Translations under genes and position numbers: made by a program
NCBI GenBank assembly: GCA_963751535.1
Contig: CAVVUW010000001.1
Coordinates: 167,955-231,954 of the forward strand
Direction of reading: 5' to 3'
DNA: 64,000 nt
Source of the DNA: an uncultured Alphaproteobacteria bacterium
Lineage (GTDB): Bacteria > Pseudomonadota > Alphaproteobacteria > Rhizobiales > Xanthobacteraceae
The notes under the pieces: model-generated
Told to the model about the DNA's origin: nothing
What the model saw: only the letters and a program-made list of their open reading frames with translations
The model's database searches: none
Shown here: piece by piece, positions 35,326-52,068 of the stretch
Position numbering within the stretch: position 1 is the first letter of the stretch
Layout: each line of letters begins with the position of its first letter

Positions 35326-36381
35326 TCACATCATCCGCGCCAGTAGCAGGCCACCGGTCACGACGGCAAATATCACCGCAGACGCGCCGAGCGCCGTCGT
35401 AATGTGTCTCCAGCCGAGGCCGATAATGGTTTTCACCGACGTGCCTAAACCGAGCGCGCCGATGGCGAGTAGCAGACCCCAGGTGGAGACCTCCACCAAT
35501 ACATTTCTAACGGGGGCATAGACCGGAGCCACAGATGGCACCAGCGGTACGGCGCTATTCAGCAAGCAGAGCAACAGAAACACGATCGCAAAGACCGGCA
35601 CCGGCACATGCGCCTCGCCGTGCCGCATGCCAATGCGCGTGAAGTACCAGCCGACACCGAGGACCATCGGTAACAGCAGGAACACGCGGAACAGCTTGAC
35701 GATTACCGCGGTGTTGCCGACCCCACCCGACACTGCGTAACCGGCGCCCACGACCTGTGCGACATCGTGGATAGTTCCGCCGAGCATGACCCCGGTGGTC
35801 TGCGCATCGAAACCGAACAAAATGCACAACGGCGGATAGATCAGCATCGCCAAAGTTGCCAGTGCGTTGACGGCAACTACCACGAAGGCAATGTCCGCCT
35901 CCTTGCCCTTGTAGTCCGGAACAACCGTCGAGGTCGCAAGCGTGGCAGAGGCGCCGCACACCGCGGTACCTACCCCCACAAGCGCCCCGAATCCGGGCGT
36001 CTGCCCGCTCCAACGCGCGAAAGCAAACCCCGACACCACGGTGATCGCCATTGCAACGACAATCAGCATCGCAGTTTGCGCGCCGAGCGCCGCGATGTCC
36101 CCGAGACCGACGCGCAGCCCAAGCAGCGCTACCGCCCAACGCAGCAAGATCTTGACGCAAAACTGCATACCCGGCTGCACCGCGGGCCGCGCTGCCAACG
36201 GGTTAAGTGCTATCCCGACGACAAGCGCTATCACCATGCTGGGGATCGGTACGAAGTGCGCCACATAGGGCGCGGTGACATAACCGATGGCTGCGACAAC
36301 CGCGGAGAGCGCGATCCCGGGAGCAAGCGCGGCTGCCGCCGATACCGACGGGCGCAAAGCTTGCATATTATCTGCGCTCAC
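35326..36381 (-). CDS. YeiH/UPF0324-family membrane protein (family usually annotated as putative sulfate exporter)
   Basis: Polytopic membrane protein (...IALVVGIALNPL..., GGTIHDVAQVVGAGY). GTG at 36381 is preceded by AAGGAA, and ATG 36366 is an alternative. The ORF-track start at 36606 overlaps the upstream gene and is unlikely. Confidence 0.85.
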   Translation of the reverse strand: MSADNMQALRPSVSAAAALAPGIALSAVVAAIGYVTAPYVAHFVPIPSMVIALVVGIALNPLAARPAVQPGMQFCVKILLRWAVALLGLRVGLGDIAALGAQTAMLIVVAMAITVVSGFAFARWSGQTPGFGALVGVGTAVCGASATLATSTVVPDYKGKEADIAFVVVAVNALATLAMLIYPPLCILFGFDAQTTGVMLGGTIHDVAQVVGAGYAVSGGVGNTAVIVKLFRVFLLLPMVLGVGWYFTRIGMRHGEAHVPVPVFAIVFLLLCLLNSAVPLVPSVAPVYAPVRNVLVEVSTWGLLLAIGALGLGTSVKTIIGLGWRHITTALGASAVIFAVVTGGLLLARMM

Positions 36382-36391
36382 AGGCGATTCC

Positions 36392-37297
36392 TTATTGGCT
36401 CGCGACAAGCTTGTTGCCGGCACGGCTGGATTTGAGGCCCGCAGAAACCGCATCGGCAATTTGCGACGGCGTATCGAGGACAGTAACGCCAGCCGCTTCA
36501 AGCGCCTGGCGTTTGGAAGCGTAGCCGCCGGCATTTCCCGTGACGATTGCGCCGGCATGGCCCATTTTCTTGCCAGCAGGCGCGGCCGCCCCGGCAATGA
36601 AAGCAACGATCGGTTTTGTCATCTTCTTAGCGTAAATGGCCGCATCTTCTTCCATCGCGCCACCGATCTCGCCGACGACGACAACCGCGTCGGTGCCGCT
36701 ATCCCTGTCGAGCGCCTCGAGTGCATCGCGCGTCGTCGTGCCGAGCATCGGGTCGCCGCCAATTCCGATGAACGCTGACTGGCCAAGGCCAGCGCGCGTC
36801 AGGTTGAGACAGATCAGCGTACCGAGGCTGCCGCTGCGCGAGATCACGCCGACGCGCCCAGACCTGAATACGCTCGGCACGAATGCAGGCATGATGCCGA
36901 CGAAGCACTCGCCGGGCGTCACTAGGCCCGCAGTATTAGGGCCAACGATGCGTGTGCCGTGCCTCGCCGCTGCGGCATGCATTGCCATGACATCCTGGGC
37001 TGGAATGTGTTCGGTCAGAACAACCAGCAACTTGATACCCGCCTCACCCGCAGACACCGCAGCATCTTTGGCCATCGCCGGGGGAATGAACATGACCGCA
37101 ACATCGCCCCCGACCTTCGCAACCGCTTCGGCTGTGGTCGCAAATATCGGCACGCCGACATGCGTTTCGCCGGCCCGCTTCGGGTTGACCCCCGCGACCA
37201 CGTTGGTCCCGTAGGCAATCATCTTCTCGCTCCAGAAAGTGCCCTGCTTGCCCGTAATTCCGAGCACTACGACACGATCTTTCTTGCGAACGATCAT
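36392..37297 (-). CDS. succinyl-CoA-synthetase alpha-subunit-like protein (CoA-binding subunit of an ADP-forming acyl-CoA ligase)
   Basis: [10 protein letters not shown] (CoA/Rossmann), SRSGSLG, and the phosphohistidine loop [10 protein letters not shown]. The start overlaps the beta-like gene stop (ATGA). Confidence 0.9.
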
Positions 37298-38421
37298 TGC
37301 GCTGCCTTCACCGCCGCCTGGATGGCGTCTTCCATGAACTCATAGGGCTCGATACCAAGCTCGTTGCGAACCAGCGCTAGCGCCTCCTTTTCACCCGTGC
37401 CGTGGATGGAAAAAAACACCGGCACACGCGGTGCAAGCTTGTGCCAAGCGCGCACTACACCTTCGGCCATTACGTCAGTACGCGCGAAGGCACCGCAGAA
37501 GTTGATTACCAGACTTTTCACGCCGGGATTGGAAAGCACCAGATCGAGCGCGATCTCCGACTTGGTGTACGCCTCGCCGCCGATTTCAAGGAAATTTGCT
37601 GGCTTGCCGCCGTAATACCGGATCACATCCATCGTGGTCATGGTGAGTCCCGCGCCGTTGGCCAGAACGCCCACATTGCCGTCAAGCTGAATGAGTTTGA
37701 GGCCATTCTCAGCCCCACGCTTCTCAAGCGCCGTCATCGAGCCAGCGGCCCCACCTTTGGCGAGTTCGGACTGGCGGTAGATCGCCGCATCGTCGAGCAC
37801 AAACTTGCAATCGAGCGCGACCACGCGGCCATCGCCGAGCAGCGCCAGCGGATTTATCTCGAGGAGCTCGGCGTCGCACGTGCGAAACGCCGTGTAGAGC
37901 CGCTCGAGAATTTTCACGGTATGTGTTTCGGCCGGACCAAGATCGAGCCCTTTCAGCATGGCAGCGATGTCGGCCCTATTCGGCTCGCCATCAATATCGA
38001 GCAGCAGGCGCCGGACGGCGGCGGGCTTCACCTGGGCGATTTCTTCGATGTCCATGCCGCCTTCAGTCGAAAACAGGATCAACGGCCTTCGCGCCACGAC
38101 GTCGTGAAGAACGGCGGCATAGAATTCGCGTGCAATATGCGCCTGCTCTTCGACAAGCAGGCGTTCGACCGTGTAACCGCCGATGCTCATCCCGAGGATC
38201 TGTTCGGCGGCCTTGCGCGCTTCGTCGGGCGTATGGGCAAGTTTGATGCCGCCGGCCTTTCCACGTTTTCCGGCCGGCACCTGCGCCTTGACAACACATG
38301 GTCCGATATTCGAAGCGGCCAACACCGCCTCTGCGGCAGTGGTGCAAAGCGCTCCACGGAGTGTCGGAATGCCCGCAGCATTCAGGACGAGTGACTTTGC
38401 CGCGTGTTCGTCAAAGTTCAT
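37294..38421 (-). CDS. succinyl-CoA-synthetase beta-subunit-like protein (ATP-grasp subunit of an ADP-forming acyl-CoA ligase)
   Basis: MNFDEHAAKSLV...VVKAQVPAGKRGKAGGIKLA is a divergent version of the SucC N-terminus (MNIHEYQAK...). The internal ATG at 38421 matches homolog N-termini. Confidence 0.88.
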   Translation of the reverse strand: MNFDEHAAKSLVLNAAGIPTLRGALCTTAAEAVLAASNIGPCVVKAQVPAGKRGKAGGIKLAHTPDEARKAAEQILGMSIGGYTVERLLVEEQAHIAREFYAAVLHDVVARRPLILFSTEGGMDIEEIAQVKPAAVRRLLLDIDGEPNRADIAAMLKGLDLGPAETHTVKILERLYTAFRTCDAELLEINPLALLGDGRVVALDCKFVLDDAAIYRQSELAKGGAAGSMTALEKRGAENGLKLIQLDGNVGVLANGAGLTMTTMDVIRYYGGKPANFLEIGGEAYTKSEIALDLVLSNPGVKSLVINFCGAFARTDVMAEGVVRAWHKLAPRVPVFFSIHGTGEKEALALVRNELGIEPYEFMEDAIQAAVKAAQ

Positions 38422-38462: not shown

Positions 38463-39887
38463 TCAGCGTCCGTATTTTTTCCAATAGGCGCCGAACAGGT
38501 CTTCCTCACTCGGCTTGTCTTCCGGAATTGTCGTCACGAGGTGCGTAATGTTGAGGAAATGCCTGTAGTTCAAATTCTCCGTGATGCTGTTGCCTCCCCA
38601 GGTGCCGCACCCCATGCTGAGCGTGAAGTTGAGTCCGTTATCGAATCCCCCGCCATTCCCGAACGTGTGCGCCTGATTGATCAGCACGCGCACTACATCG
38701 GCGCGCTCAGCCAAAGTTCGGCCGCGCTTCATATCTTTTGTATGCAAGCCCACCGAGTGACCCCGTCCTTGGTGCGCGAGGATTTCATTCGCGCGCGCAA
38801 TCGCGGCGTCGAAGTCCTTGACGCGGTAAACGGCCAGTACCAGCGACAGCTTTTCGCTGGAAAACGGAAAACCACGGCCCACGCCGGTTTCCTCAACCAT
38901 GAAAAACTTCTTTGATTGCGCGGCATCGGGCAAACCACATCCGCGCGCAAACACATCGGCATCGCGCGCAATCAGCGTGCGGCTCAACTTGCCGTCGGGC
39001 CACAGCGCAGCCTGGATCGTCGACTTCTCGGCCGGCGAAGCCATGTAGCCGCCCGCGCGTTCGAGAGCCGCGATCGCCTTGTCATAGATCGCCTCAACAA
39101 GGATCACTGAGTTTTCCGACGAGCATGAGGTCGAATTGTCGAAAATCTTGGAAGCGCAAATCTTCTTTGCCGCATCGTCGAGATCGGCCGTTTCGTCGAC
39201 AATCACCGGGACATTGCCGGTCCCCACGCCGATCGCCGGTGTACCACTCGAGTAAGCGCGGCGCACATTGTCCTGGGAGCCGGTGGCCACGATCAGGTCG
39301 GCCGCGTGCATTAATGCCTGCGTCATATCCTTTGACGCGGGCGCCGGCAGAATTTGCACCAGATCTTCGGGCAAACCGATTTTCTTGAGCTCTGCGCGCA
39401 TGTATTCGACCGTCCGCACCGTGGTTTTCAATCCGGCAGGTGAGGCCGCAATAACGATGGCGTTTCGTCCCTTGATTGCCATCATCGCCTTGTTCACCGG
39501 CGTTGCACCCGGATTGGTCGATGGAGTGATGGCGCAAACAAGACCGACCGGTTTCGCGTATTTGACGATGCCGAGTTTCTTGTCTTCCTCAATGATACCG
39601 ACCGATTTCACACGCAGGAGGTCGCGCAATGTGCCGAAGGTCTTGCGCTGCTTCTTGGTAATCTTGTCGGGCACATTGCCGAGTTGAGTATCCTTGACCG
39701 CCAGTTCGGCCAGCTCTTTCGCATGCGCCGGGTTGTATAGAGACCAGGCAAGCGCTGTGACCGCTTCATCCACGCGCGCCTGGTCAGCCTTGGCAAATGA
39801 AGCCATCGCCGCACGCCCACGCCGCACTAGCTCGTCGACCACCGTCGTGACGTTCGAATCGGCCGCCGGTTTTACCGCGACAGTCAT
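38463..39887 (-). CDS. CoA-acylating aldehyde dehydrogenase (SauS-like candidate sulfoacetaldehyde dehydrogenase)
   Basis: ALDH-superfamily fold of the acylating type (ITPSTNPGATPVNK, catalytic Cys region FDNSTSCSSENSV). The SauS-like label comes from operon context with xsc only. Confidence 0.85.
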   Translation of the reverse strand: MTVAVKPAADSNVTTVVDELVRRGRAAMASFAKADQARVDEAVTALAWSLYNPAHAKELAELAVKDTQLGNVPDKITKKQRKTFGTLRDLLRVKSVGIIEEDKKLGIVKYAKPVGLVCAITPSTNPGATPVNKAMMAIKGRNAIVIAASPAGLKTTVRTVEYMRAELKKIGLPEDLVQILPAPASKDMTQALMHAADLIVATGSQDNVRRAYSSGTPAIGVGTGNVPVIVDETADLDDAAKKICASKIFDNSTSCSSENSVILVEAIYDKAIAALERAGGYMASPAEKSTIQAALWPDGKLSRTLIARDADVFARGCGLPDAAQSKKFFMVEETGVGRGFPFSSEKLSLVLAVYRVKDFDAAIARANEILAHQGRGHSVGLHTKDMKRGRTLAERADVVRVLINQAHTFGNGGGFDNGLNFTLSMGCGTWGGNSITENLNYRHFLNITHLVTTIPEDKPSEEDLFGAYWKKYGR

Positions 39888-39903: not shown

Positions 39904-41691
39904 TCACAGATTGGCCGTTTGTTGTGGCCGCATGTCCTCGCGCCTTATGCCGGCCACGACCACCGGCTTCTTCATGGCATCGCGGCGGAACGGCTCACCA
40001 AGTTCCTGATTGAGAACTACCTCGATGAAGGTCGTGACGCGCTTCTTCTGCGCCTCGCAAGACTGCCGAAGTGCCTCCGTCAGTTCCGTCGCCGTTTTTA
40101 CTACTACGCCCTTGAGACCACAGGCTTCGGCCACCTTTGCATAGCTGAGATGCGGGTCGAGTTCGGTACCGACGAAATTGTCGTCGAACCAAAGAATCGA
40201 GTTGCGCTTTTCTGCGCCCCATTGGTAATTGCGAAAGACCACCATAGTGATGCCCGGCCACTCCTCGCGGCCAACCGAACTCATTTCGTTCATTGAGATT
40301 CCGAAGGCGCCGTCACCGGCAAACCCGATACAAGGCGTATCCGGATTGCCGATTTTGGCGCCTATGATGGACGGAAAGCCGTAACCGCAAGGCCCAAAAA
40401 GCCCCGGCGCCAGGTATTTCCGGCCTTTGTCGAATGTTGGATAGGCATTGCCGATAGCGCAGTTGTTGCCGATATCGCTCGAGATGATCGCATCCTTGGG
40501 CAGTCCGGCCTGAATGGCCCGCCAGGCCTGCCGCGGCGACATACGATCCGCATCCCGCTTGCGCGCATCCGCATTCCAGGTCGTACCTGGATCATCGTCT
40601 TCATGATCCATACTGGACAAAGTCTGAAGCCATTTGGACTTGGTCGTATGGATCAATGCCTTCCGATCTTCGCGTCCGGCATTCCCAGCCGAGGGAGACA
40701 GTTGCGCCAGAATGCTTTGGGCGACCAGCTTGGCATCGCCACAAATGCCGACGGTCACTGGCTTGGTCAGGCCGATCCGGTCGGCGTTGATATCGACCTG
40801 AATGATTTTGGCGGTCTTCGGCCAGTAGTCGATACCGTAGCCCGGCAAGGTCGAAAACGGGTTGAGTCTTGTCCCCAGCGCGAGAACCACGTCGGCCTTG
40901 GCAACCAGTTCCATTGCCGCTTTCGATCCGTTGTAGCCGAGGGGCCCGACGGCGAGCCTATGGCTGCCGGGGAAACTGTCATTGTGCTGGTAGTTGTTGC
41001 AAACCGGCGCGTCGAGCCTTTCGGCGAGCGCGACGCAATCGGGAATCGCGTTGCCAAGCACGACACCCGCACCCGAGAGAATAACCGGGAATTTGGCGCC
41101 CGAGAGAAGCCTCGCCGCGTCCGCCACCGCGTGGGCACCGCCCGACGGCCGCTCGAACTCGACGATGGCCGGCAAATTGATGTCGATCATTTGCGTCCAG
41201 TAGTCACGCGGGATGTTGATCTGCGCGGGCGCCGAAAGGCGCTTTGCTTTGGTGATGACGCGATTGAGAACCTCTGCCGTACGTGACGGATCACGCACTT
41301 CTTCCTGATAGCAGACCATGTCGCGAAACAACGCCATCTGCTCCACTTCCTGGAAACCGCCCTGACCGATCGTCTTGTTCGCCGCCTGCGGCGTTACCAG
41401 GAGCATCGGCGTGTGATTCCAGTACGCGGTCTTGATGGCGGTGACGAAATTCGTGATGCCTGGGCCGTTTTGCGCAATCGCCATAGCGATTTTCCCGGTC
41501 GATCGCGTGTAGCCATCGCAGATCAGACCGCCATTGGTCTCGTGGGCAACGTCCCAGAATGTAATACCGGCTTTGGGAAAGAGATCGGATATCGGCATGA
41601 ATGCCGAGCCGATGATGCCGAAGGCATGCTCGATGCCGTGCATCTGCAACACCTTCACGAATGCTTCTTCGGTAGTCATCTTCATAGTCAT
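39904..41691 (-). CDS. xsc: sulfoacetaldehyde acetyltransferase (ThDP-dependent)
   Basis: The N-terminus MKMTTEEAFVKVLQMHGIEHAFGIIGSAFMPISDLFPKAGI...TAYWNHTPMLLVTPQAANKTIGQGGFQEVEQ matches what I recall of Xsc proteins. By RBS spacing the likely true start is ATG 41685. Confidence 0.88.
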   Translation of the reverse strand: MTMKMTTEEAFVKVLQMHGIEHAFGIIGSAFMPISDLFPKAGITFWDVAHETNGGLICDGYTRSTGKIAMAIAQNGPGITNFVTAIKTAYWNHTPMLLVTPQAANKTIGQGGFQEVEQMALFRDMVCYQEEVRDPSRTAEVLNRVITKAKRLSAPAQINIPRDYWTQMIDINLPAIVEFERPSGGAHAVADAARLLSGAKFPVILSGAGVVLGNAIPDCVALAERLDAPVCNNYQHNDSFPGSHRLAVGPLGYNGSKAAMELVAKADVVLALGTRLNPFSTLPGYGIDYWPKTAKIIQVDINADRIGLTKPVTVGICGDAKLVAQSILAQLSPSAGNAGREDRKALIHTTKSKWLQTLSSMDHEDDDPGTTWNADARKRDADRMSPRQAWRAIQAGLPKDAIISSDIGNNCAIGNAYPTFDKGRKYLAPGLFGPCGYGFPSIIGAKIGNPDTPCIGFAGDGAFGISMNEMSSVGREEWPGITMVVFRNYQWGAEKRNSILWFDDNFVGTELDPHLSYAKVAEACGLKGVVVKTATELTEALRQSCEAQKKRVTTFIEVVLNQELGEPFRRDAMKKPVVVAGIRREDMRPQQTANL

Positions 41692-41717: not shown

Positions 41718-42587
41718 TCAGGTCTTGTCCTGAAAAATCTCGGCTAGCTCGCTGGCGGCGCTTCTCAGCGCCGGCAAATGGCGGCGCGCTGTTTGAACAT
41801 TCATGCGTGCCTCTGGCGCCTGGATAGCAAGGGCCGCGAGCATCTCACCGTTGGTCCCCGTTACCGGAACGGCCATACAGACAACGCCCAGCAGATACTC
41901 TTGCCGGTCGAAAGAGACCTGCTCTTTTCGAATCTGACGAAGCTCGAACTCGAGCCGATCACTGTCGGTGATGGTGTTATCGGTGTATCGCCGCAGTTCC
42001 AGACTCTGCAGGAGCCGCTTGCGGCGCGGCGAAGCAGCCAACGCAAGGAATAACTTGCCGATGGCACTGCAGTGCAGTGGCACGCGTGAGCCACTGGTGT
42101 AGTGCAGGCGGAGGGGCCAATGCTCGGCTTCGACGCGATCGAGATAAACCACCTCGCCGTTCAGGAGCGTACCGATATTGCAGGTCTCGTTGAGCGTATG
42201 GACGAGGCGCTGAAGCACCACGTGCGGCGTGTCATGTCGCATCGAGGACGACAGCGCACCAAAGGCAAGATTCGCGAGTTTTGGACCGACAATCAGCCGG
42301 CGCCGTCCGGGCTCGCGCGCGAGATAGCCTTGCGTCACAAACCAATCCACCAACCGATAAGCCGTCGCCTTCGGCAATTTCACTGAAGCGATAATGTCGA
42401 GCACGTCGACCGGCGTACGTGAGCTTGCGACATGTTCGAGGATAGCGAAGGAACGTGCTGTAGCCCCGAGTTTGTGCTCGCGCGCGGCGCCCGTCTTCGA
42501 AGGACTAAGATGTGGTTTGAGCTCATCCACATTCCGCCCGGAGCCGGTACCAGTGGCCCTTTCGTGAATTCCGAGATTGCTACGCAT
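41718..42587 (-). CDS. IclR-family transcriptional regulator
   Basis: N-terminal wHTH (ARSFAILEHVASSRTPVDVLDIIASVKLPKATAYRLVDWF) plus an IclR effector domain (...GVVCMAVPV...). Confidence 0.9.
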   Translation of the reverse strand: MRSNLGIHERATGTGSGRNVDELKPHLSPSKTGAAREHKLGATARSFAILEHVASSRTPVDVLDIIASVKLPKATAYRLVDWFVTQGYLAREPGRRRLIVGPKLANLAFGALSSSMRHDTPHVVLQRLVHTLNETCNIGTLLNGEVVYLDRVEAEHWPLRLHYTSGSRVPLHCSAIGKLFLALAASPRRKRLLQSLELRRYTDNTITDSDRLEFELRQIRKEQVSFDRQEYLLGVVCMAVPVTGTNGEMLAALAIQAPEARMNVQTARRHLPALRSAASELAEIFQDKT

Positions 42588-42594
42588 GGATCAC

Positions 42595-44112
42595 CTACCT
42601 AGCCCCCGTTTGGACAGTCATCACGCGACTTCTGAATAGGCGCTGCACGAACGGCAGCAACAGGACGACAATGGTCAGTACAACGATGGTTCCAGAGATG
42701 GGTCGCGTGAAGAATACGGTCCAGTCATTCGAAAAACTGATCATCGTGTTCATGAACGCCTCTTCGGCAATCGGACCGAGGATGACGCCAAGTACGAGCG
42801 GCGCGACCGGAAATTTCAGGCGTTCGAAACCATAGCCTAGAATGCCGAACCCGATGATCAGCCAAAGATCCGTAATGTTGTTGCGGATCGACAGCGCACC
42901 GATGAAGCAGAGGATCAACACGTAAGCCGAGACAACCGCCTCGGGAAAATCGAGGATTTTCACGAGGGGCCGGATCGCGAAATAGCCGAGCGCGCACATC
43001 AGCGCCAAGCCGAGGAACAGTGATGCAAACACCGTATAGACAAGGGGCGCCGAGTTCGCGAGAACCTGCGGACCCGGTTGAATTCCGTGCAGCATGAAGG
43101 CACCGAGAATGACTGCGGTTGCACCGCTGCCCGGAATGCCAAGTGCAAGCAGATGAACCATGGCTCCGCCGACTGAAGCTGTCGCTGCGGCCTGCGGCGC
43201 GATGATCCCTTCGGCAATCCCCGTCCCCATCTGATCCTTGCGCTTGCCGAAACGCGCCTCGATTCCGTAGCTCACGAACGATGCAATAGTAGCGCCGGCG
43301 CCCGGCAACAGCCCGATGAGATCGCCGACCACCGAAGAGCGAAAAAACATGCCCTTCACCTCATTAAGCTCCTTGAGCGTCGGCAATTCGGTGCGTGCAT
43401 TCGAAATCTTGTCGAGTGGCTTGGTGGTAAAGCCTAATTCCAGACGCGTCAGAACTTCACCTACGCCATAGGCGCCGACCATGACCACGAGAAACTCGAT
43501 GCCGTCGGCGAGAATGGGTGAACCGAAGGTGAAACGGTAGGCGCCGTAGATCGGATCAGTGCCGACAGTTGAAATCAGAATGCCGACGCTCATGCTAATG
43601 AAGGCGTTGGCGAGTGATCCCTTGCCGATCGCTACCACGCTGAGCAAGCCGAACATGATGATCACAAAATACTCGGGCGAGGAAAAACGCAGAGCGAATT
43701 TGGCAAGCGGTTCTGTAAGCGCCACCATGACGACCGCCGAGAGAAGCCCGCCACCAAGAGCCGCGACCAGGGTCCAGCCCAGCGCCTTGGCTGGCTTGCC
43801 CTTGCGCCCCATGGTGTAACCGTCCCACAGCATGGGAACGTCAATGGGCTCCCCCGGAATTCGGAAGAGGATCGCGGTGAAAGCGCCGCCGTAAGTTCCC
43901 GATACGTACATCGCGGTGAGCAAAACGATCGAGGCGGTGACGTCCATCTTGTAGGTGAAGGGCAAGGCCAGCGCGACGCCCATGACCAACGTCAGCCCCG
44001 GCAACACGCCGATCAGCAGACCAATGACGATGCCGATCACAAGCATCGCCAGATTGAGCGGCGTCAGACAGTGCAGAAACCCCGAGGCCAGCTGAGCGAG
44101 AATGTCAATCAT
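42595..44112 (-). CDS. tctA: TTT large permease TctA (second system)
   Basis: The start MIDILAQLASGFLH is at 44112. TctA repeats are present (GVLPGLTLVMGVALALP, GIPGSGATAVILG). Confidence 0.9.
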   Translation of the reverse strand: MIDILAQLASGFLHCLTPLNLAMLVIGIVIGLLIGVLPGLTLVMGVALALPFTYKMDVTASIVLLTAMYVSGTYGGAFTAILFRIPGEPIDVPMLWDGYTMGRKGKPAKALGWTLVAALGGGLLSAVVMVALTEPLAKFALRFSSPEYFVIIMFGLLSVVAIGKGSLANAFISMSVGILISTVGTDPIYGAYRFTFGSPILADGIEFLVVMVGAYGVGEVLTRLELGFTTKPLDKISNARTELPTLKELNEVKGMFFRSSVVGDLIGLLPGAGATIASFVSYGIEARFGKRKDQMGTGIAEGIIAPQAAATASVGGAMVHLLALGIPGSGATAVILGAFMLHGIQPGPQVLANSAPLVYTVFASLFLGLALMCALGYFAIRPLVKILDFPEAVVSAYVLILCFIGALSIRNNITDLWLIIGFGILGYGFERLKFPVAPLVLGVILGPIAEEAFMNTMISFSNDWTVFFTRPISGTIVVLTIVVLLLPFVQRLFRSRVMTVQTGAR

Positions 44113-44116
44113 GCGC

Positions 44117-44659
44117 TCACCATAGGCTCGGAATCGCAAAGAAGATGTCGGTCGCGCGATCGAATGGCGGAACGCCACGCGGCAGTGAAACATAGGCAAT
44201 ACGCAAAAACAGAATTCCGCAGAAGATCGTCACAGCCGCGCTGGTGCCCCAGATCGCGCGGTGCTCGCGGTACCCGCCGACATACATGAAGGCGGCGAGG
44301 AATAGGAACGTGCCGAGGATGAACCCGAGCACAGGCACGAGGACGGCATAGATCGCCATCAGAACAATGCCGCCGACCAGCAATCGCGGATAAACGGGCT
44401 GTTTTTCCTCGACCTGCGGCTCTCGGTCGAATGCCTCCATAAATCCGGCGGCATCCTGATTGCCGACGATCAGCCGACGTGAGATTTCAAACAGGCAGGA
44501 GCCGCCCATCAGCAGGATTGCAAGGCGTGGCCACACGTCGGGCCCGAGTTGCCCGGGCCGAGGTGCGTAGTCGAATGTGCCTGCATAAAGATAAAGAGCG
44601 GCCGCGATGGCGAGACCCATCGCATAAGGCACAATCGAGCGGAACAGCGCCTTGTCCAT
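44117..44659 (-). CDS. tctB: TTT small subunit TctB (second system)
   Basis: 180-aa four-helix membrane protein between tctC and tctA. Confidence 0.85.
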   Translation of the reverse strand: MDKALFRSIVPYAMGLAIAAALYLYAGTFDYAPRPGQLGPDVWPRLAILLMGGSCLFEISRRLIVGNQDAAGFMEAFDREPQVEEKQPVYPRLLVGGIVLMAIYAVLVPVLGFILGTFLFLAAFMYVGGYREHRAIWGTSAAVTIFCGILFLRIAYVSLPRGVPPFDRATDIFFAIPSLW

Positions 44660-44678: not shown

Positions 44679-45633
44679 TCAGTTCGTCGCTACGGTCTTT
44701 TTCATGTCGTCGAGCTGTTCGTTCACGAAGGCCGGAGCCTTCGACGCATCCTCAAAACTGTTCGGATCGGCGTATTGCTCCTCGAGGAACTTCTTGTACT
44801 CGGGTGATGCGTAGACCTTCGCCAGCGCTTCCGAAAGTTTCTTCACGACGTCGGGTGGTGTGCCGGCCCGCACGACGATCGCACGAAATTGCGGCAAGCG
44901 CCACCTTGTAGCCGAGCTCAAATGACGTTGGCACATCTTTGAATGCGTCCAGGCGCTTTTCACCGAACAGCAAAATGGGACGCATCTGTTTGCCGTTGAG
45001 GAACTGCGCAACATCGCCGGCCTGCTCGTAGAGTGCATCGGCGTGACCGCCGAGGATCGAGACATAGCGCTCGCTGGGCTTGGAGAACGGCACTTGGACG
45101 ACCTTGATGCCACCGCGGTCAAGCACGGTGAGCGAAAAATCATCGACACTGCCAAAGCCAAGCGTCGCAACCTTCAGTTTGTTCGGATTGGCCTTGGCTT
45201 CTTTGGCGAAGTCGTCCCAGGTTTTGAAGGGGCTATCCTCCTTCACGAAAATAAACGATGGACCCTTGATCATCACCGCGACTGGCGTGATGTCGTTCAT
45301 CGTCCAACGCGCGCTTTTTCCGGCGAGCAGCGCATGACTATCGGCGATATATATCGCCATGGAGTAGCCGTCGGCAGGCGCGGCAAGGAGTTTCGCCATA
45401 CCGGTCGCACCGGTGCCCCCAGGGACGTTCACAACCGGGATGCCCTGACCGAGCATCGGCTCCATCAGCTTGCTGACGAGGCGCGCGAGTTGATCGGCGC
45501 CACCACCTGGGCCCCACGGAACGATCAGTTCGATAGGTCGCTCGGGATATCCGGCCGCGACCGCCTTGCCCCCGAACAGCGCGGCACCAATGGCCAACAG
45601 CAAAATTGTGACGCTTCGCATGGTCGAACGCAT
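44679..45633 (-). pseudogene. tctC: TTT substrate-binding protein TctC (Bug family, second system) split by a 1-nt frameshift
   Basis: ORF 44752-45633 reads ...VPTSFELGYKVAL and then turns into nonsense. ORF 44679-45170 carries the Bug C-terminus LPQFRAIVVRAGTPPDVVKKLSEAL.... The frames join near 44895-44903 if one base is removed from AAGGTGGCGCTTGCCG. Confidence 0.85.
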
Positions 45634-45904: not shown

Positions 45905-47047
45905 TTAGCGCTGCTCCAGGGGCACGTAGGTACGGGCGTCGGGCCCGTTATAAAGCGTGAGCGGACGCAGAAGGATGTTGTTCTCAAGCTGCTCGAGCAC
46001 CTGCACTACCCAACCGGGCACGCGACCGATCGCGAAGATCGGCACGAACAGATCGCGCTTTATGCCGAGCAGGTGATAGACAACGCCCGAGTAGAAATCG
46101 ACGTTCACGTTCACGCCATGACGCGCATAGGGCGCCATCGCCGCGACCACCGCCTGTAGGATCTCGAACCACTTTGGCTGACCCATTTCCTTTGAAAGGC
46201 GCTCCACGCCTGCGCGCATATGGCGGGCACGCGGATCTTCTGCGCGATAGACACGGTGACCGAAGCCGGTGACCGCTATTCCGGCCTTGCGTTTTTCCTT
46301 TACATAGTCCGCGGCACGCGACGGATCGCCAATCTCCTCGGCCATCTTCATAACGTCCTCCGCGGCGCCGCCATGCGCCGGGCCCGACAACGCCGCAATA
46401 GCCGCAACGATCGCAGCATGGAGATTTGCTTCAGTACCGATCACAACCCGCGCGGCGAACGATGAGGCGTTAGAGCCGTGCTCGGCATGCAGGATCAGAT
46501 CACGGTCGATCAGCTGTGCAGCGTCGACGCTTGGCTTTTTCCCCATCAACATCCAGAGCAGATTGGCGGAATGGTTGAGCGTCTGATCGGCCGGCACAGG
46601 ATCTTGATCGGCGCGGATGCGCGAATGTGCGGCGACGATCATCGGTATCTGCGAAGTCAGCCGAATGGCCTTGCGGAGCGTAGCTTCACGTGAGTTGTCC
46701 GCCGTTTCGGGATCAAACGCAGACAGAGCCGACGCTGCCGTACGTAGGACATCCATGGGATGCGCCGATTTGACGGCGTGAATGATGTCAAGGACGGGGG
46801 CTGGCAGCTTACGCGCCGCCTTTAGATCGGCATCAAAAGCAGCGAGCTGCTGCTTGCTGGGCAATTCGCCGTTAAGCAATAGCCAGGCAGTCTCCTCGAA
46901 GCTCGAATGCTCGGCGAGGTCATGAATTGAATAACCACGGTAGCGCAGTTCGCCCGCCTTGCCGTCGATGAAGGTACAGGGCGAACGATCAAAGTAAACG
47001 CCCTTCAGGCCGCGTTGAATCTTGATCGCTTCGGCGGTTTCGGTCAT
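45905..47047 (-). CDS. citrate synthase family protein (short ~380-aa type; citrate/2-methylcitrate synthase or citryl-CoA-lyase-like)
   Basis: The catalytic blocks HAEHGSNAS, GFGHRVYR and NVDFYSG are present. The start MTETAEAIK is at 47047. Confidence 0.88.
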   Translation of the reverse strand: MTETAEAIKIQRGLKGVYFDRSPCTFIDGKAGELRYRGYSIHDLAEHSSFEETAWLLLNGELPSKQQLAAFDADLKAARKLPAPVLDIIHAVKSAHPMDVLRTAASALSAFDPETADNSREATLRKAIRLTSQIPMIVAAHSRIRADQDPVPADQTLNHSANLLWMLMGKKPSVDAAQLIDRDLILHAEHGSNASSFAARVVIGTEANLHAAIVAAIAALSGPAHGGAAEDVMKMAEEIGDPSRAADYVKEKRKAGIAVTGFGHRVYRAEDPRARHMRAGVERLSKEMGQPKWFEILQAVVAAMAPYARHGVNVNVDFYSGVVYHLLGIKRDLFVPIFAIGRVPGWVVQVLEQLENNILLRPLTLYNGPDARTYVPLEQR

Positions 47048-47076
47048 TGATGCCCTCGCTCGCAACTTTGCGTCTT

Positions 47077-47091
47077 TCTCACGCGGTGAGA
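47077..47091. promoter_or_regulatory. third copy of the TCTCRC-N3-GTGAGA palindrome, in the citrate-synthase-like/pta divergent region
   Basis: TCTCAC-GCG-GTGAGA has perfect 6-bp arms. It lies 30-44 nt from the ATG at 47047 (-) and 4 nt before the pta ATG at 47095. Confidence 0.5.
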
Positions 47092-47094
47092 AGC

Positions 47095-48078
47095 ATGGAC
47101 TTGCTCAAGAAGCTTTTTGATATCGCACGGCAGCGCAATCGCAAAATCGTTTTGCCGGAAGGCGAAGATGAACGGATCATTATCGCTGCCGCACGCCTTG
47201 CGAGCGAGAAGATCGCCTCCCCTATCCTCCTCGGCTCTGCTGAGGAGCTTACGCGACTTGCCGGCCAGCATAGCGTCTCGCTATCCGGGATCGAGATTGC
47301 CGACCCGCGCAGCGACGCGCGACTGCAAAGCTATGGTTCAGCGCTCGCGCGGCTCCGCGAGTCGATGACCCCATCGGTGGCCATGCGTCTCGCGTCTAAA
47401 CCGATCTATTTTGGAGGCATGATGGTTCGGGAAGGCCATGCAGATGCGATGGTCGCGGGCTGCGCCAACCCGACGCGGCGCGTAATCGAGGCGGGGTTGA
47501 TGACCGTCGGATTGGCAGATGGCATCACGTTGCCGTCGAGCTATTTCCTGATGATCGTGCCGGATTTCCTTGGGCAAGGTCCAAGATCGTTCATCTTTGC
47601 CGATTGTGCGGTCAATGCTGATCCGACATCCGCCGAGCTTGCCGATATTGCGATCACTTCGGCACACAGCGCGAAGGCGCTACTCAAAGAGACTCCGCGT
47701 GTGGCGATGCTGTCCTTTTCGACCAAGGGCAGCGCACAGCACGCACGCGTCGATAAGGTGCGGGAGGCCATGAGTCTGGTGCGCCAACGCGAACCGGACC
47801 TTGCCATCGATGGGGAGTTTCAGGCTGACGCGGCCTTGGTGCCGAGCGTCGCGCGGAAGAAAGTAAAGGAGGACAGCGCGGTCGCCGGACAGGCGAATGT
47901 CCTGATTTTTCCTGACCTCGACTCGGGCAATATCGCCTACAAGCTCACGCAGTGGCTCGGCGGCGCCCAGGCAATCGGCCCATTCCTGCAGGGCTTTGCC
48001 AAACCAATCAGCGATTTATCGCGCGGCGCCACAGTTGAAGATATCGTCACAACGTCCGCCGTGGTGGCGGCGAGGTGA
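47095..48078 (+). CDS. pta: phosphate acetyltransferase
   Basis: MDLLKKLFDIARQRNRKIVLPEGEDERII...ADAMVAG...FADCAVN...LIFPDLDSGNIAYK are typical short-form Pta motifs. Confidence 0.9.
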   Translation: MDLLKKLFDIARQRNRKIVLPEGEDERIIIAAARLASEKIASPILLGSAEELTRLAGQHSVSLSGIEIADPRSDARLQSYGSALARLRESMTPSVAMRLASKPIYFGGMMVREGHADAMVAGCANPTRRVIEAGLMTVGLADGITLPSSYFLMIVPDFLGQGPRSFIFADCAVNADPTSAELADIAITSAHSAKALLKETPRVAMLSFSTKGSAQHARVDKVREAMSLVRQREPDLAIDGEFQADAALVPSVARKKVKEDSAVAGQANVLIFPDLDSGNIAYKLTQWLGGAQAIGPFLQGFAKPISDLSRGATVEDIVTTSAVVAAR

Positions 48079-48101: not shown

Positions 48102-49691
48102 TTAGTGCTTCCACTCCGGCGCGGGCACCGGCTTCCACGCGCGCTTGAGCTTGAGGTCGTCGACGATCGCGTTGGCGGCAATGTAGCCCGGAGCCCCGTT
48201 GATACCTCCTCCGTTTCCCGACGACGAACCACAAAGATAGAGCCCTTCCACCGGCGTGCGGGATCCAGGCATCAGAGGATGCGGCCGGTTGATACCGAGC
48301 TGGTTCGGCACATAGGCCCCGACACGCACGGCACCCTGGCGCATGTTCGCATTGAGCTTTTCCACATCGAGCGGCGTGAACAAGTAGGTCCCAATCAGGT
48401 TGTCGCCTTCGAGATTGGACGCGTAGATACGCCAGTAATCGAGGACACGGCGAGTGTATTCGGCGCGATTGCGCTCCCATTCCTGCGGCGAGCCATCCAC
48501 TGAATAGGGAGCAAACGGCCACCAGAACGCAGCGTGCTTGCCACCGGGTGCGTAGCTCGGATCGAACATACTGTTGCACGCACCATTGCCCATCAGCACG
48601 CTGGGAAATTTTTTTGCCGCACAGTCTTCAAAGCAGCTCGCGACGTCGTCAATGTGATCCATGCCGAAAAAGATATTGTAGGCGCGCGAAATATCGGCAT
48701 CGAAAGCAGCTGCGCGGTAGGCCGGAGGGTCTTTGAGCGCGAGGTGCAACGTCACCAGGCTGTGGTTGCCCCAATGCCACGACTTCGCTTTTTCTCGCAC
48801 CGGCTCGGGAAATAATTCTTCGCCGGTCATTCGCACGGTCGTGGGAAAATCGATCGCACTTGCCACGAATTTGCGGCCATCGACCGTGCGACCATCGGCA
48901 AGCTTCACCCCGGTGGCCCGCCCGTTGGTGACTTTGATTTCTCTCACCTCTGCGTCTGTGATGATCTCGCCGCCGCCGGCCTCCACCACCCGCGCCAGCG
49001 CGAGCGCAAGAGAAACTGCGCCGCCAACCGGCAATGTAAAGCTGGCGATATTGGCAAAGATCGCCGGAAAGACGATTCCCGCGCCTGGCACATTTTCGGT
49101 CGTGATGACGTGCATGTAGGACGTGAACAGGGTTCGAATGCGCTCGTCGACAAAATGCTTCCGCACAACACTGAAGAGATCGTGCTGAGCATGCGAAAGC
49201 AGTTCCTTTGCCTTTGGTCCGCTCAGCCGGTCGATCAGTTGCTCGCGCGGCATCGGCGCGTTGTAAAGCAATGATACCAGTAACGGTCGCATTTCCTCGC
49301 AATAGGTGTGCCACAACGCGCGAAATGTCTCGGCGTCCTGCCGGGAAAATCGAGCAAGCGACGCGCAGCTCTTGTCTAGATCCTTGTAGATGACAATGCC
49401 GGTGCCATCACGGAAGACAGCCGCTTGCTGAACGGGCGGCTCGATATAGGAAAAGCCATAGCGATGGAGCTCAAGGTCCCGCAACAAAGGACAAAACCCG
49501 ATGCCCATGTAAAAATTCGCGTGCAGATTGAGCCTATAGCCGGGAAGAATGCGCTCCTCCGTGCTCGAACCCCCACCGATGCGGTTATTGCGCTCAAGTA
49601 CGGCAACTCGCATGCCCGCGCGCGACATATAAGCGGCAAGAGCGAGACCATTGTGGCCGGCTCCGATTACGACGCCGTCGAAATCCGTCAT
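48102..49691 (-). CDS. CrtI/phytoene-desaturase-family NAD(P)/FAD-dependent oxidoreductase
   Basis: N-terminal dinucleotide fold VVIGAGHNGLALAAYMSRAGMRVAVLERNNRIGG. It is 529 aa and starts 10 nt after the comE-like stop. Confidence 0.85.
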   Translation of the reverse strand: MTDFDGVVIGAGHNGLALAAYMSRAGMRVAVLERNNRIGGGSSTEERILPGYRLNLHANFYMGIGFCPLLRDLELHRYGFSYIEPPVQQAAVFRDGTGIVIYKDLDKSCASLARFSRQDAETFRALWHTYCEEMRPLLVSLLYNAPMPREQLIDRLSGPKAKELLSHAQHDLFSVVRKHFVDERIRTLFTSYMHVITTENVPGAGIVFPAIFANIASFTLPVGGAVSLALALARVVEAGGGEIITDAEVREIKVTNGRATGVKLADGRTVDGRKFVASAIDFPTTVRMTGEELFPEPVREKAKSWHWGNHSLVTLHLALKDPPAYRAAAFDADISRAYNIFFGMDHIDDVASCFEDCAAKKFPSVLMGNGACNSMFDPSYAPGGKHAAFWWPFAPYSVDGSPQEWERNRAEYTRRVLDYWRIYASNLEGDNLIGTYLFTPLDVEKLNANMRQGAVRVGAYVPNQLGINRPHPLMPGSRTPVEGLYLCGSSSGNGGGINGAPGYIAANAIVDDLKLKRAWKPVPAPEWKH

Positions 49692-49700
49692 GCTGCCCCA

Positions 49701-50324
49701 CTATGCGCTCGCGGCCTTTACCCCAAGACCGCGCATGAAACGCTCGCGAATTTGAACCGGGTCACGATCCGTCGTTGCTACCGCCGGTTTGTCGTCGATG
49801 CGAACGGCGATCAGGTTCGGCCCCTCACCCTTGAGTGCTGTTGTAACCAAGCGATCGAAGTCCGTCTCGTCAGCAGCCCAGACACTGCTTGCAATGCCGG
49901 CGCCACGCGCAATTGCGACAAGGTCAGCTGCCGGACTTGCGGTCGGCTGCGAGCCGGTGATCTGATAGATGCCGTTGTCCCAAACAACGATCGTGAGATT
50001 TTTCGGCGCGCGTTCGCCCACGGTTGCGAGACAGCCAAGCTGCATCAACAGAGAGCCGTCGCCTTCGAGCGCAAAAACATGTCGACGCGGTTGCGCAATG
50101 GCAACGCCAAACGCAATCGGTATTGCGAGCCCCATGCTGCCGAGCATGTAGAAATTTTGCGGGCGTTGACCACTAGCCCAAAGATCGAAATTGGCATTGC
50201 CGATGCCGCCGATGACGGCTTCCTCGTGCTTGAGCTGACCGACGAGCCGCTTGGTCAATTCGAAGCGGTTCATAACCTTGGCATTGTGCGCCGGTGTCGC
50301 TCCAGACGATTTCGTGTTCGTCAT
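49701..50324 (-). CDS. comE: sulfopyruvate decarboxylase beta-subunit-like ThDP enzyme subunit
   Basis: ThDP/Mg motif EGDGSLLMQLGCLATVGERAPKNLTIVVWDNG. The internal ATG at 50324 gives about 207 aa. A split phosphonopyruvate decarboxylase cannot be excluded. Confidence 0.75.
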   Translation of the reverse strand: MTNTKSSGATPAHNAKVMNRFELTKRLVGQLKHEEAVIGGIGNANFDLWASGQRPQNFYMLGSMGLAIPIAFGVAIAQPRRHVFALEGDGSLLMQLGCLATVGERAPKNLTIVVWDNGIYQITGSQPTASPAADLVAIARGAGIASSVWAADETDFDRLVTTALKGEGPNLIAVRIDDKPAVATTDRDPVQIRERFMRGLGVKAASA

Positions 50325-50328
50325 GGCG

Positions 50329-50865
50329 TCACCCTTCAAACACTTTGCCGCCTGTGAGCAACGGCGACAGGATAAAAGCAACAGGCGCTTGGGTGGCCAC
50401 GGCTTGCTTGATGGACCGATCAATCGTAAAGGCCAGTTCGTCCTGGCGTGTGATCGTGACGTTCTCGACCGCAAGTGAATTGAGCACCGGTCGCATCGTC
50501 TTGTACACCAGCGCCTGCCCGAGATTGAACTCGCCGAGCGTGCCGCGTTCCGAAACAAATATCAGCGCCGGAATCTGACAGGGCACAACAAGCGAGGCGA
50601 GTGCATTTGGAATAGTAGCGAAGCCGCTGGTCTGCATCAGGACGGCACCGCGTAGTCCACCCATCCACGCACCGGTAATGATGCCGATGGCTTCTTCCTC
50701 GCGCGTGGCAGCAAACGTCGTGAAAAACTGATCGGCGTGAAGGGACTTGATCAGCGGCGTGAACACCCGATCAGGCACATAAACGATGAGCTTGACGTTG
50801 TTCGCCTTGAGGGTTGCGAGAATGATCTCGTGCCAGTTGGTTGCCTGTGCTTGATCGTCTGTCAT
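50329..50865 (-). CDS. comD: sulfopyruvate decarboxylase alpha-subunit-like ThDP enzyme subunit (PYR domain)
   Basis: ~178 aa from ATG 50865. The REEEAIGIITGAWMGG block carries the conserved Glu of ThDP PYR domains. It lies 4 nt upstream of the beta-subunit gene. Confidence 0.75.
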   Translation of the reverse strand: MTDDQAQATNWHEIILATLKANNVKLIVYVPDRVFTPLIKSLHADQFFTTFAATREEEAIGIITGAWMGGLRGAVLMQTSGFATIPNALASLVVPCQIPALIFVSERGTLGEFNLGQALVYKTMRPVLNSLAVENVTITRQDELAFTIDRSIKQAVATQAPVAFILSPLLTGGKVFEG

Positions 50866-51023
50866 GGGCGGCAAAATTGCGTACACCTGTACTGAAATTC
50901 GTGTCGTTCTTGCCAAGCTATCGGCGCTTGCTTGAGGCCATTGCTCGCGCAAACGCAAAAGCTTAGCCTAACAGGAATAATGCAACTAATCAGAAAATTT
51001 TGCCGAAACTCAAGGGGAGGACG

Positions 51024-52040: not shown

Positions 52041-52068
52041 AACAATCGTCATCGGCCAAAACCCTCGC

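Follow-up and report, generated by a model that had tools for sequence, protein, structure and literature searches.

A succinyl-CoA synthetase-like subunit pair as the predicted sulfoacetate-CoA ligase of a sauS–xsc gene array in an alphaproteobacterium

The turnover of sulfoquinovose and taurine commonly ends in sulfoacetate, and the enzymes that activate this compound show which organisms can mineralise its sulfur. [quoted passage not shown] Which acid does this pair activate, and is it more than another succinyl-CoA synthetase (SCS)? Sulfoacetate, which the initial annotation had favoured as the most coherent substrate, is the best supported candidate because the synteny with SauS, Xsc and a TTT transporter, the altered residues of the succinate pocket and the AMP-forming ligase of the SauT type that relatives carry at this position all point to it. 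We put at roughly 0.8 the probability that the pair is a heteromeric, NDP-forming ligase of the SCS type, which makes sulfoacetyl-CoA from sulfoacetate and replaces SauT in the cluster.

The ligase genes and the array around them

The reading frames of the beta and alpha subunits overlap by ATGA and belong to a nine-gene array in the order tctCBA, iclR, xsc, sauS, beta, alpha and a yeiH-like exporter gene (Table 1). The pair had been described as lying directly behind the acylating aldehyde dehydrogenase and xsc; indeed, only 41 nt separate the beta gene from sauS upstream of it, and another 16 nt separate sauS from xsc. Both sauS and xsc are single-copy genes, with one match each over the model cut-off in the genome. 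Two candidate start codons of the yeiH-like gene (GTG at 36380 and ATG at 36365) are located just past the alpha stop codon, and TIGR00698, one of the models that its product matches, is named “putative sulfate export transporter”. The pta gene, the true start of which is probably slightly downstream of 47047, has a syntenic counterpart in the Pseudolabrys MAG L032. So does the citrate synthase family gene, with 91% identity; the association of this gene with the pathway holds at the genus level only.

Table 1. Features of the sauS–xsc array and neighbouring genes in the window
Feature	Position	Strand	Evidence
YeiH/PF03601 membrane protein, putative sulfate/sulfite exporter, array end	35326..36380	-	Pfam Cons_hypoth698 199 bits; TIGR00698
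alpha (CoA-binding, phosphohistidine) subunit, sauD-like	36392..37297	-	301 aa; Pfam and NCBIfam
beta (ATP-grasp) subunit, sauC-like, proposed sulfoacetate-CoA ligase beta	37294..38421	-	375 aa, ATG at 38421; Pfam and NCBIfam
sauS, acylating sulfoacetaldehyde dehydrogenase	38463..39887	-	NF047625 equivalog 788 bits, cut-off 600
xsc, sulfoacetaldehyde acetyltransferase	39904..41691	-	TIGR03457 958 bits
IclR-family regulator, co-directional, between tctA and xsc	41718..42587	-	Pfam IclR_C and HTH_IclR
tctA, large permease, tripartite tricarboxylate-type transporter, SauX/Y/Z-like	42595..44199	-	Pfam TctA 441 bits
tctB, small membrane subunit	44117..44659	-	ORF; tblastn to L032 TctB, 87% identity
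tctC, periplasmic binding protein, SauZ-like, frameshifted	44679..45633	-	match to L032 TctC
type II citrate / 2-methylcitrate synthase family gene, between pta and tctC	45905..47065	-	TIGR01800 426 bits
pta, phosphate acetyltransferase	47047..48078	+	NF007233 351 bits; TIGR00651 326 bits

The tctC gene carries a +1 frameshift near 44898: the L032 TctC (317 aa) aligns to frame -1 for residues 1-246 and to frame -2 for residues 246-317, and there is one extra C in the window gene relative to L032. The extra base is missing from the contigs of three soil runs. With tctC frameshifted in the assembly, uptake may therefore be broken here. A scan for promoters and terminators returned nothing exceeding chance. 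In two RNA runs, some 5% of the sampled words were present.

Divergence from the housekeeping succinyl-CoA synthetase

The Pfam domains are ATP-grasp_2 and Ligase_CoA for beta, and CoA_binding and Ligase_CoA for alpha; together the subunits have the features of the SCS superfamily (heteromeric NDP-forming acyl-CoA ligases of the SucCD type), phosphohistidine loop included. Pfam finds no AMP-binding domain in the pair, which sets it apart from the adenylate-forming fold (PF00501) of SauT. Among PDB entries, the pair matches 3ufx_B (E 8e-74) and 6mgg_A (E 2e-78) best. The alpha subunit keeps the phosphohistidine loop MGHAGA (MGHAGAIV, as first annotated) together with SRSG and GEIGG, and the beta subunit keeps KAQ, EINPL and the Asp of ALDCK (the D204 position); the catalytic residues of the pair are intact. 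Fold, subunit organisation and catalytic machinery are shared with canonical SucCD (E. coli 1JKJ, Thermus 3UFX, pig 5CAE), which occurs, however, in a TCA-cycle context, whereas the window pair is found in another genomic context, with the residues that bind the C4 carboxylate of succinate replaced.

A separate housekeeping sucCD, the presence of which elsewhere in the genome was the check suggested at the outset, is found on the same contig, in a canonical mdh-sucC-sucD operon (G000:C1:~370-373 kb). The window pair is not the housekeeping enzyme. The genome's own SucC and SucD score 598 bits with NF001913 and 456 bits with NF004230, respectively; the window beta subunit reaches 346 bits with the former model, under the equivalog cut-off of 370, and the window alpha subunit 340 bits with the latter, barely over the cut-off of 336. 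Identity to the genome's own subunits is 37% for beta and 42% for alpha. The beta N-terminus is as divergent as previously noted, with MNFDEHAAKSLV where the housekeeping SucC has MNIHEYQAK. The SucC and SucD models are nonetheless the best NCBIfam matches of the pair, with alpha slightly over its cut-off, and its relatives are named succinyl-CoA synthetase in public annotation, as would suit a second succinyl-CoA synthetase, a paralogue placed here by chance. With a canonical copy already in the genome and the beta score under the SucC cut-off, such a paralogue is very improbable, and pocket, phylogeny and gene linkage speak against it too.

In pig SCS (5CAE), two elements bind the C4 carboxylate of succinate: the hydroxyl group of alpha Tyr167 and the GIV motif of beta, the latter through its backbone (PMC11489063). 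These canonical residues (alpha Tyr; beta G-G-I-V/M/T) are absent from the window pair. The alpha subunit reads SRSGSLGTL where the canonical sequence is SRSGTLTYE, Tyr being replaced by Thr, and GPNTAG where the canonical subunit has GPNCPG; the beta subunit reads NFCGAFARTD against NIFGGI(V/M)(R/K)CD in canonical SucC, by which GGI(V/M) becomes GAFA and GIV becomes AFA. Substitution of the GG(I)(V/M) motif as well as of the Tyr that binds succinate argues against a second succinyl-CoA synthetase, and the pocket is, judged by its residues, of a non-succinate type. In a motif survey, this signature (alpha Thr, beta GAFA) was invariant across 24 related loci. The signature proposed for the HpfYZ type (alpha His in place of Tyr, beta G-I-N) is also absent, the window pair having alpha Thr and beta A-F-A. 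The motif pair of beta NFCGAFAR[TC]D and alpha SRSGSLGT provides a simple handle for re-annotating such genes, which are labelled “succinyl-CoA synthetase”, “ATP-grasp domain-containing protein” or “CoA-binding protein” in public records; under such generic labels, the SucCD-like module is missed by pathway surveys.

In the tree, the window clade (support 99/97) is a subclade separate from the SqwK type, and a branch supported at 100/98 puts the two together, apart from bacterial and archaeal SucC. The parting of the clade from every canonical SucC, archaeal included, is again at odds with a succinyl-CoA synthetase paralogue. Sequences of the GGINN type cluster with canonical SucC. In this phylogeny, the window clade appears as the deep sister of the SqwK type.

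Linkage to SauS and the predicted route

SauS is encoded directly upstream of the pair in 18 of the 24 related loci; it has the same position on p3 of Azospirillum brasilense Sp7, with TTT, SoeABC-like genes and xsc, and on pDK3 of Rhodococcus sp. DK17, with xsc, PntAB and TauE. The linkage is tight over 11 families, which argues further against a chance placement of a succinyl-CoA synthetase. Transporter genes of the tctCBA type occur in about nine related loci, and IclR genes flank many of them. In a sample of 200 genomes from the same order, SauS was found in 17 of the 19 carriers of the pair. Four SauS genomes of the order sample that lack the pair have an AMP-binding ligase immediately after SauS, and three of the four also have TTT genes upstream: in this slot, the pair displaces SauT. 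At least one of 400 genomes in a phylum-level sample carries the pair, a loose lower bound with four candidates scored per genome. NCBIfam accessions neighbouring the SauS model were considered as a possible SauT model and rejected, as they represent unrelated Leptospira families.

We infer that the pair would act on sulfoacetate, in the direction of activation and presumably with ATP in preference to GTP. Sulfoacetate would be imported by the TctABC-type (SauXYZ-like) transporter and converted by the ligase to sulfoacetyl-CoA at the cost of one ATP (to ADP), by the usual phosphohistidine and acyl-phosphate route. SauS would then use NADPH to convert sulfoacetyl-CoA to sulfoacetaldehyde, which Xsc would turn into acetyl phosphate and sulfite; Pta would make acetyl-CoA from the acetyl phosphate. 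The sulfite would be oxidised and/or exported, for which the YeiH-family protein and the sulfite-oxidase-family enzymes encoded elsewhere in the genome are candidates.

Two alternatives raised in the initial annotation, 3-sulfopropanoate as the substrate and a reverse flux, are both less likely than sulfoacetate activation. The activated acid could be 3-sulfopropanoate, malonate or another small dicarboxylate analogue, with only a loose tie to Xsc: the characterised SauCD of Bilophila wadsworthia (BwSauCD) also acts to some extent on 3-sulfopropanoate and malonate (PMC10413351), HpfYZ is a known 3-sulfopropionate-CoA ligase resembling SCS (PMC11489063), and the window pocket is unlike that of SqwKL. 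Moreover, the pair is not adjacent to sauS in the genus g12, but the g12 genomes have SauS elsewhere. Activation of another acid is improbable in view of the partner dehydrogenase, a SauS equivalog with a score (788 bits) far over the cut-off; the aldehyde formed from a C3 sulfonate would not suit an xsc operon, the HpfYZ signature (alpha His, beta GIN) is missing, and relatives have a SauT-type ligase in the same slot.

Were the flux reversed, SauS would oxidise sulfoacetaldehyde to sulfoacetyl-CoA, from which the ligase would yield ATP and sulfoacetate, like SqwD/SqwKL of the sulfo-TK variant. Ligases of the SCS type are reversible, and SqwD/SqwKL and HpfXYZ run in this direction in fermenters, HpfXYZ being reversible in vitro (PMC11489063, PMC12890257). 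The window cluster, however, includes a binding-protein-dependent importer, and the Xsc of the same operon uses up sulfoacetaldehyde, for which the Xsc and TauA models showed no other route in the genome (xsc is single and no TauA scored over the model cut-off). Since sister clusters in the same order hold an essentially irreversible AMP-forming ligase in that slot, and the PntAB transhydrogenase of the Rhodococcus cluster fits a demand for NADPH, we regard reverse flux as having only a slim chance.

Relation to described sulfonate-activating ligases

[quoted passage not shown] (J Biol Chem 2023; PMC10413351) described it as the SauCD of B. wadsworthia, found together with SauS and SauXYZ, a TTT transporter. 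BwSauCD has a KM of 1.07 mM for sulfoacetate, and its activity is 20% on 3-sulfopropanoate and 7% on malonate (PMC10413351). Liu et al. also mention Xsc-containing clusters and state that alpha- and gammaproteobacteria mostly use SauT (PMC10413351). As in the window, a two-subunit SCS-like ligase is encoded beside an acylating sulfoacetaldehyde dehydrogenase and a TctABC-type transporter, and the reaction is that proposed for the window pair (sulfoacetate + ATP + CoA → sulfoacetyl-CoA + ADP + Pi). In Bilophila, sulfoacetaldehyde is reduced to isethionate, which is cleaved by the glycyl-radical enzyme IseG, whereas in the window, that of an aerobic soil alphaproteobacterium, Xsc would cleave sulfoacetaldehyde directly. 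The comparison of the window pair with BwSauCD (E5Y8P8/E5Y8P7) made here covers published properties and gene context. The contig-scan matches listed comprise six clade members and canonical SucC, with no Desulfovibrionaceae amongst them. Protein searches from the seeds P0141 and P0122 led to Firmicutes, Methylomirabilales, Chloroflexota and other groups without reaching Bilophila. A Bilophila-like candidate, P0134, was rejected, as its locus (L134) is a 2-oxoacid:ferredoxin oxidoreductase cluster.

[quoted passage not shown] 2010, cited by PMC10413351), for the same pathway step and in the same slot behind sauS; the remaining route (SauS, Xsc, Pta) is identical, and the window SauS is of the C. 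necator type. The fold of SauT is, however, unrelated (PF00501, adenylate-forming), and it spends two ATP equivalents where the window pair would spend one, which would make the SucCD-like module cheaper by one ATP equivalent. HpfYZ resembles the window pair as an SCS-like enzyme re-tuned to a sulfonated acid and partnered by an acylating aldehyde dehydrogenase; it differs in its proposed signature of alpha His and beta GIN (PMC11489063, Fig. S9/S10) and in its HpfG/HpfD context.

[quoted passage not shown] (Chu et al. 2023, as cited in PMC11489063 and PMC12890257), falls into the same non-canonical superclade and is likewise partnered by a SauS-like acylating dehydrogenase; as reported in the citing papers, its physiological direction in fermenters is that of ATP formation. 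As a proxy we used the SqwK-like L141, which shares about 80% identity with the SqwK/L fragments in print. Identity of the window pair to this proxy (beta 39%, alpha 42%) is no higher than to the genome's own SucCD. The two types have derived features in common, namely beta A-R-x-D-V-M-A-E-G and alpha N-T-x-G, SGSL and the loss of Tyr (by comparison with PMC11489063, Fig. S9/S10). Their pockets differ: MCAGAGL, GTIA and alpha Asn in SqwKL versus LANGAGL, GAFA and alpha Thr in the window pair, which retains the beta Asn at a site where SqwK has Ala. The sister SqwK/GLVAR clade includes members in unrelated contexts (L134), so the wider group is not uniform in function.

The ADP-forming type was shown in anaerobes in 2023, and the window pair is therefore a putative aerobic branch of a known kind rather than a new system. 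Clusters of sauSCD with TTT genes from marine MAGs were reportedly described in 2025. As the enzyme type and the kind of cluster have already been published, novelty is lower, while the correctness of the finding is unaffected; the biology described here extends work published in 2023–2025.

The clade of the window pair, to be called the GAFAR clade, is defined by the retained beta Asn with G-A-F-A and by the alpha Thr, and it ranges over aerobic Alphaproteobacteria, Actinomycetota and several further phyla. SauS proteins score 750-815 bits with the SauS model beside a GAFAR ligase and 610-702 bits beside SauT. A tentative and rather doubtful reading is that the GAFAR clade is a separately specialised lineage of SCS-like ligases, its sulfonate pocket built unlike that of SqwKL and possibly unlike that of BwSauCD; this lineage and a SauS subtype of its own may have diverged together. 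ADP-forming activation would then be one of the main routes by which sulfoacetate is mineralised aerobically in soil, and its substrate range might be another. Azospirillum brasilense Sp7 and Rhodococcus sp. DK17 are cultured carriers of the pair.

The gene array and its surroundings

In the window, nine genes stand in a row on the minus strand, no more than about 40 nt apart. The SucCD-like pair reported in the initial annotation behind an ALDH and xsc is confirmed; the coordinates given there are correct, and the beta N-terminus MNFDEHAAKSLV and the alpha loop MGHAGAIV are present as described. The genome contains one xsc and one sauS, as well as five sulfite-oxidase-family molybdoenzymes; no TauA scored over the cut-off anywhere in the genome.

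Features of the sauS-ligase region in the window (cut-off of NF047625: 600 bits)
Feature	Position	Strand	Remark
tctC	45633-44679	-	first gene of the array; SauZ-like periplasmic binding protein
tctB	44659-44117	-	array gene
tctA	44199-42595	-	array gene
IclR regulator	42587-41718	-	array gene
xsc	41691-39904	-	TIGR03457, 958 bits
sauS	39887-38463	-	NCBIfam equivalog NF047625, 788 bits
SucC-like beta	38421-37294	-	array gene after sauS
SucD-like alpha	37297-36392	-	ATGA overlap with the SucC-like gene
YeiH/PF03601 membrane protein	~36380-35326	-	last gene of the array (operon); NCBIfam label "putative sulfate export transporter"
type II citrate/2-methylcitrate synthase	45905-47065	-	between pta and tctC
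pta	47047-48078	+	divergent; adjoins the cluster
flanking genes	48102-53190		flavin amine-oxidase-like gene; short ThDP-enzyme C-terminal-domain ORF; enolase-superfamily (MR/MLE) gene
second TctC-family binding protein	51000-52040		among the flanking genes

The citrate synthase gene just upstream of the array accompanies the cluster in a Pseudolabrys MAG, where it is 91% identical; other lineages do not conserve this linkage. The 5′ ends of the ORFs listed for pta and for the citrate synthase overlap, and the true start of pta is therefore probably further downstream. Relative to the syntenic Pseudolabrys MAG, tctC carries one extra C near position 44898, and the binding protein is broken at residue 246 of 317 as a result. 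Contigs covering the site in three soil metagenome runs from separate studies lack the base, which therefore reflects either an error of the assembly or a lesion (pseudogene) particular to the strain.

A ligase pair distinct from housekeeping SucCD

A separate housekeeping sucCD does exist elsewhere in the genome, in an mdh-sucC-sucD array on the same contig, whose products reach 598 bits on the SucC equivalog and 456 bits on the SucD equivalog. The window beta and alpha subunits are 37% and 42% identical to these proteins, and the beta subunit scores 346 bits on the SucC equivalog, below its cut-off of 370. The catalytic set is retained: the ATP-grasp Lys, the Mg ligands, the alpha SRSG and GEIGG motifs and the phosphohistidine. 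Judged by its sequence, the window pair appears not to be a housekeeping succinyl-CoA synthetase (SCS).

In pig SCS (5CAE), the C4 carboxylate of succinate is held by the hydroxyl of alpha Tyr167 and the backbone amides of beta G-I-V (PMC11489063, section 14). The window alpha subunit reads SRSGSLGTL where the canonical enzyme has SRSGTLTYE (Tyr to Thr), and GPNTAG replaces GPNCPG; in the beta subunit, CGAFART stands in place of FGGI(V/M)(R/K)C. All 24 related loci collected show these changes without exception, and the same changes pick out a coherent group when the family is represented at 50% identity; the substrate pocket is predicted to be changed relative to canonical SCS.

[quoted passage not shown] Clusters in alpha- and gammaproteobacteria mostly carry SauT, the AMP-forming ligase (PMC10413351); in 2025, MAGs of marine sponge symbionts were reported to carry sauSCD clusters together with TTT genes (PMC12625764). 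Such ligases and clusters are already known (PMC10413351, PMC12625764).

Linkage to SauS and displacement of an AMP-forming ligase

Among 200 genomes of the window's order, the beta subunit occurs at 55-63% identity in 19, from 11 families, well apart from canonical SucC (36-42%). SauS exceeds its cut-off in 36 of the 200, including 17 of the 19 ligase carriers; the assemblies of the other two are fragmented, with the ligase gene at the end of a contig. A tblastn search of the window's proteins against 24 related loci placed SauS immediately before the pair in 18; TTT genes were found in about nine and Xsc adjoined in five. Synteny with the window cluster is full in one Pseudolabrys sp. MAG (79-93% identity), and the nearest named proteins likewise come from Pseudolabrys MAGs. 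A Pseudolabrys-like alphaproteobacterium of soil is therefore the most likely source of the window.

In four SauS-positive genomes without the pair, the gene right after sauS encodes an AMP-binding ligase, and three of these genomes have TTT genes upstream; this is a clean non-orthologous displacement at the sulfoacetate-activation step, and the strongest argument for both sulfoacetate as substrate and the catabolic direction. The altered pocket, the SauS linkage and this displacement together support the substrate originally proposed. We consider the window pair, with a probability of roughly 0.8, to be an SCS-type sulfoacetate-CoA ligase that replaces SauT in an aerobic Xsc pathway.

In the order sample, SauS scores 750-815 bits on NF047625 where the SucCD-like ligase is present and 610-702 bits where an AMP-forming ligase follows sauS; the two bands suggest that SauS has co-diverged with its ligase partner. 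In one genus (g12, family f9), the pair is not beside sauS and SauS is encoded elsewhere in the genome: the ligase genes stand alone beside a divergent IclR regulator and a Pta-like gene (L027:7659-11550, L024, L015), and sauS (787-796 bits) is on another contig, so that the module is split.

The module is also present in two cultured strains. On plasmid p3 of Azospirillum brasilense Sp7, the order is IclR, Pta-like, TctCBA, ALDH, beta, alpha, SoeABC-like, xsc; on pDK3 of Rhodococcus sp. DK17, it is xsc, PntAB, MFS transporter, ALDH, beta, alpha, IclR, TauE. Their ALDHs score 810 and 805 bits, respectively, on the SauS model. In pDK3 (L113:1562-4600), the PntAB NAD(P) transhydrogenase separates xsc from the sauS-ligase genes.

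Relation to SqwKL

In the sulfo-TK variant, the related SqwKL runs the reaction towards ATP formation (PMC11489063, PMC12890257). Fragments of SqwK (MCAGAGL and VTFGTIARADVMAEG) and SqwL (GGNTSG and TRSGSLTNE) are printed in the PMC11489063 supplement, and both ligase subunits encoded on a metagenome contig (L141) match them at about 80% identity. The other genes of this contig, for an EamA transporter, a SauS-like dehydrogenase (522 bits), a Na:sulfate-symporter-family protein and a split transketolase, fit a sulfo-TK variant cluster. At 39% and 42% identity, the window pair stands no nearer to this proxy for SqwKL, the L141 pair, than to the genome's own SucCD.

In a tree of 64 sequences (LG+C20 PMSF), the window's clade, named GAFAR after its beta motif, has support of 99/97 and the SqwK/GLVAR clade 100/99. 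A branch supported at 100/98 separates these two and a Firmicutes GAYAR group from bacterial and archaeal canonical SucC and the GGINN group. With a root placed among the canonical enzymes, the GAFAR clade and the SqwK type would descend from a shared non-canonical ancestor as deep sister lineages with unlike pocket residues. On this phylogeny, the GAFAR clade, which is widespread and mis-annotated, would be a sister of the characterised SqwK type; its putative function is read from the genes around it and not from an orthologous protein that has been assayed.

The sister SqwK clade has members in quite other contexts, so function is not uniform over the superclade. One such pair (L134:5739-18477, Ga0078972_1001100; motifs LCTGAGL and VTFGLVARAD), sister to the SqwK type, clearly has no SauS context. 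Its neighbours are an NADPH-oxidoreductase-like gene, a three-subunit 2-oxoacid:ferredoxin oxidoreductase, TctCBA and a 953-aa fusion of an aldehyde:ferredoxin oxidoreductase with a class-III aminotransferase.
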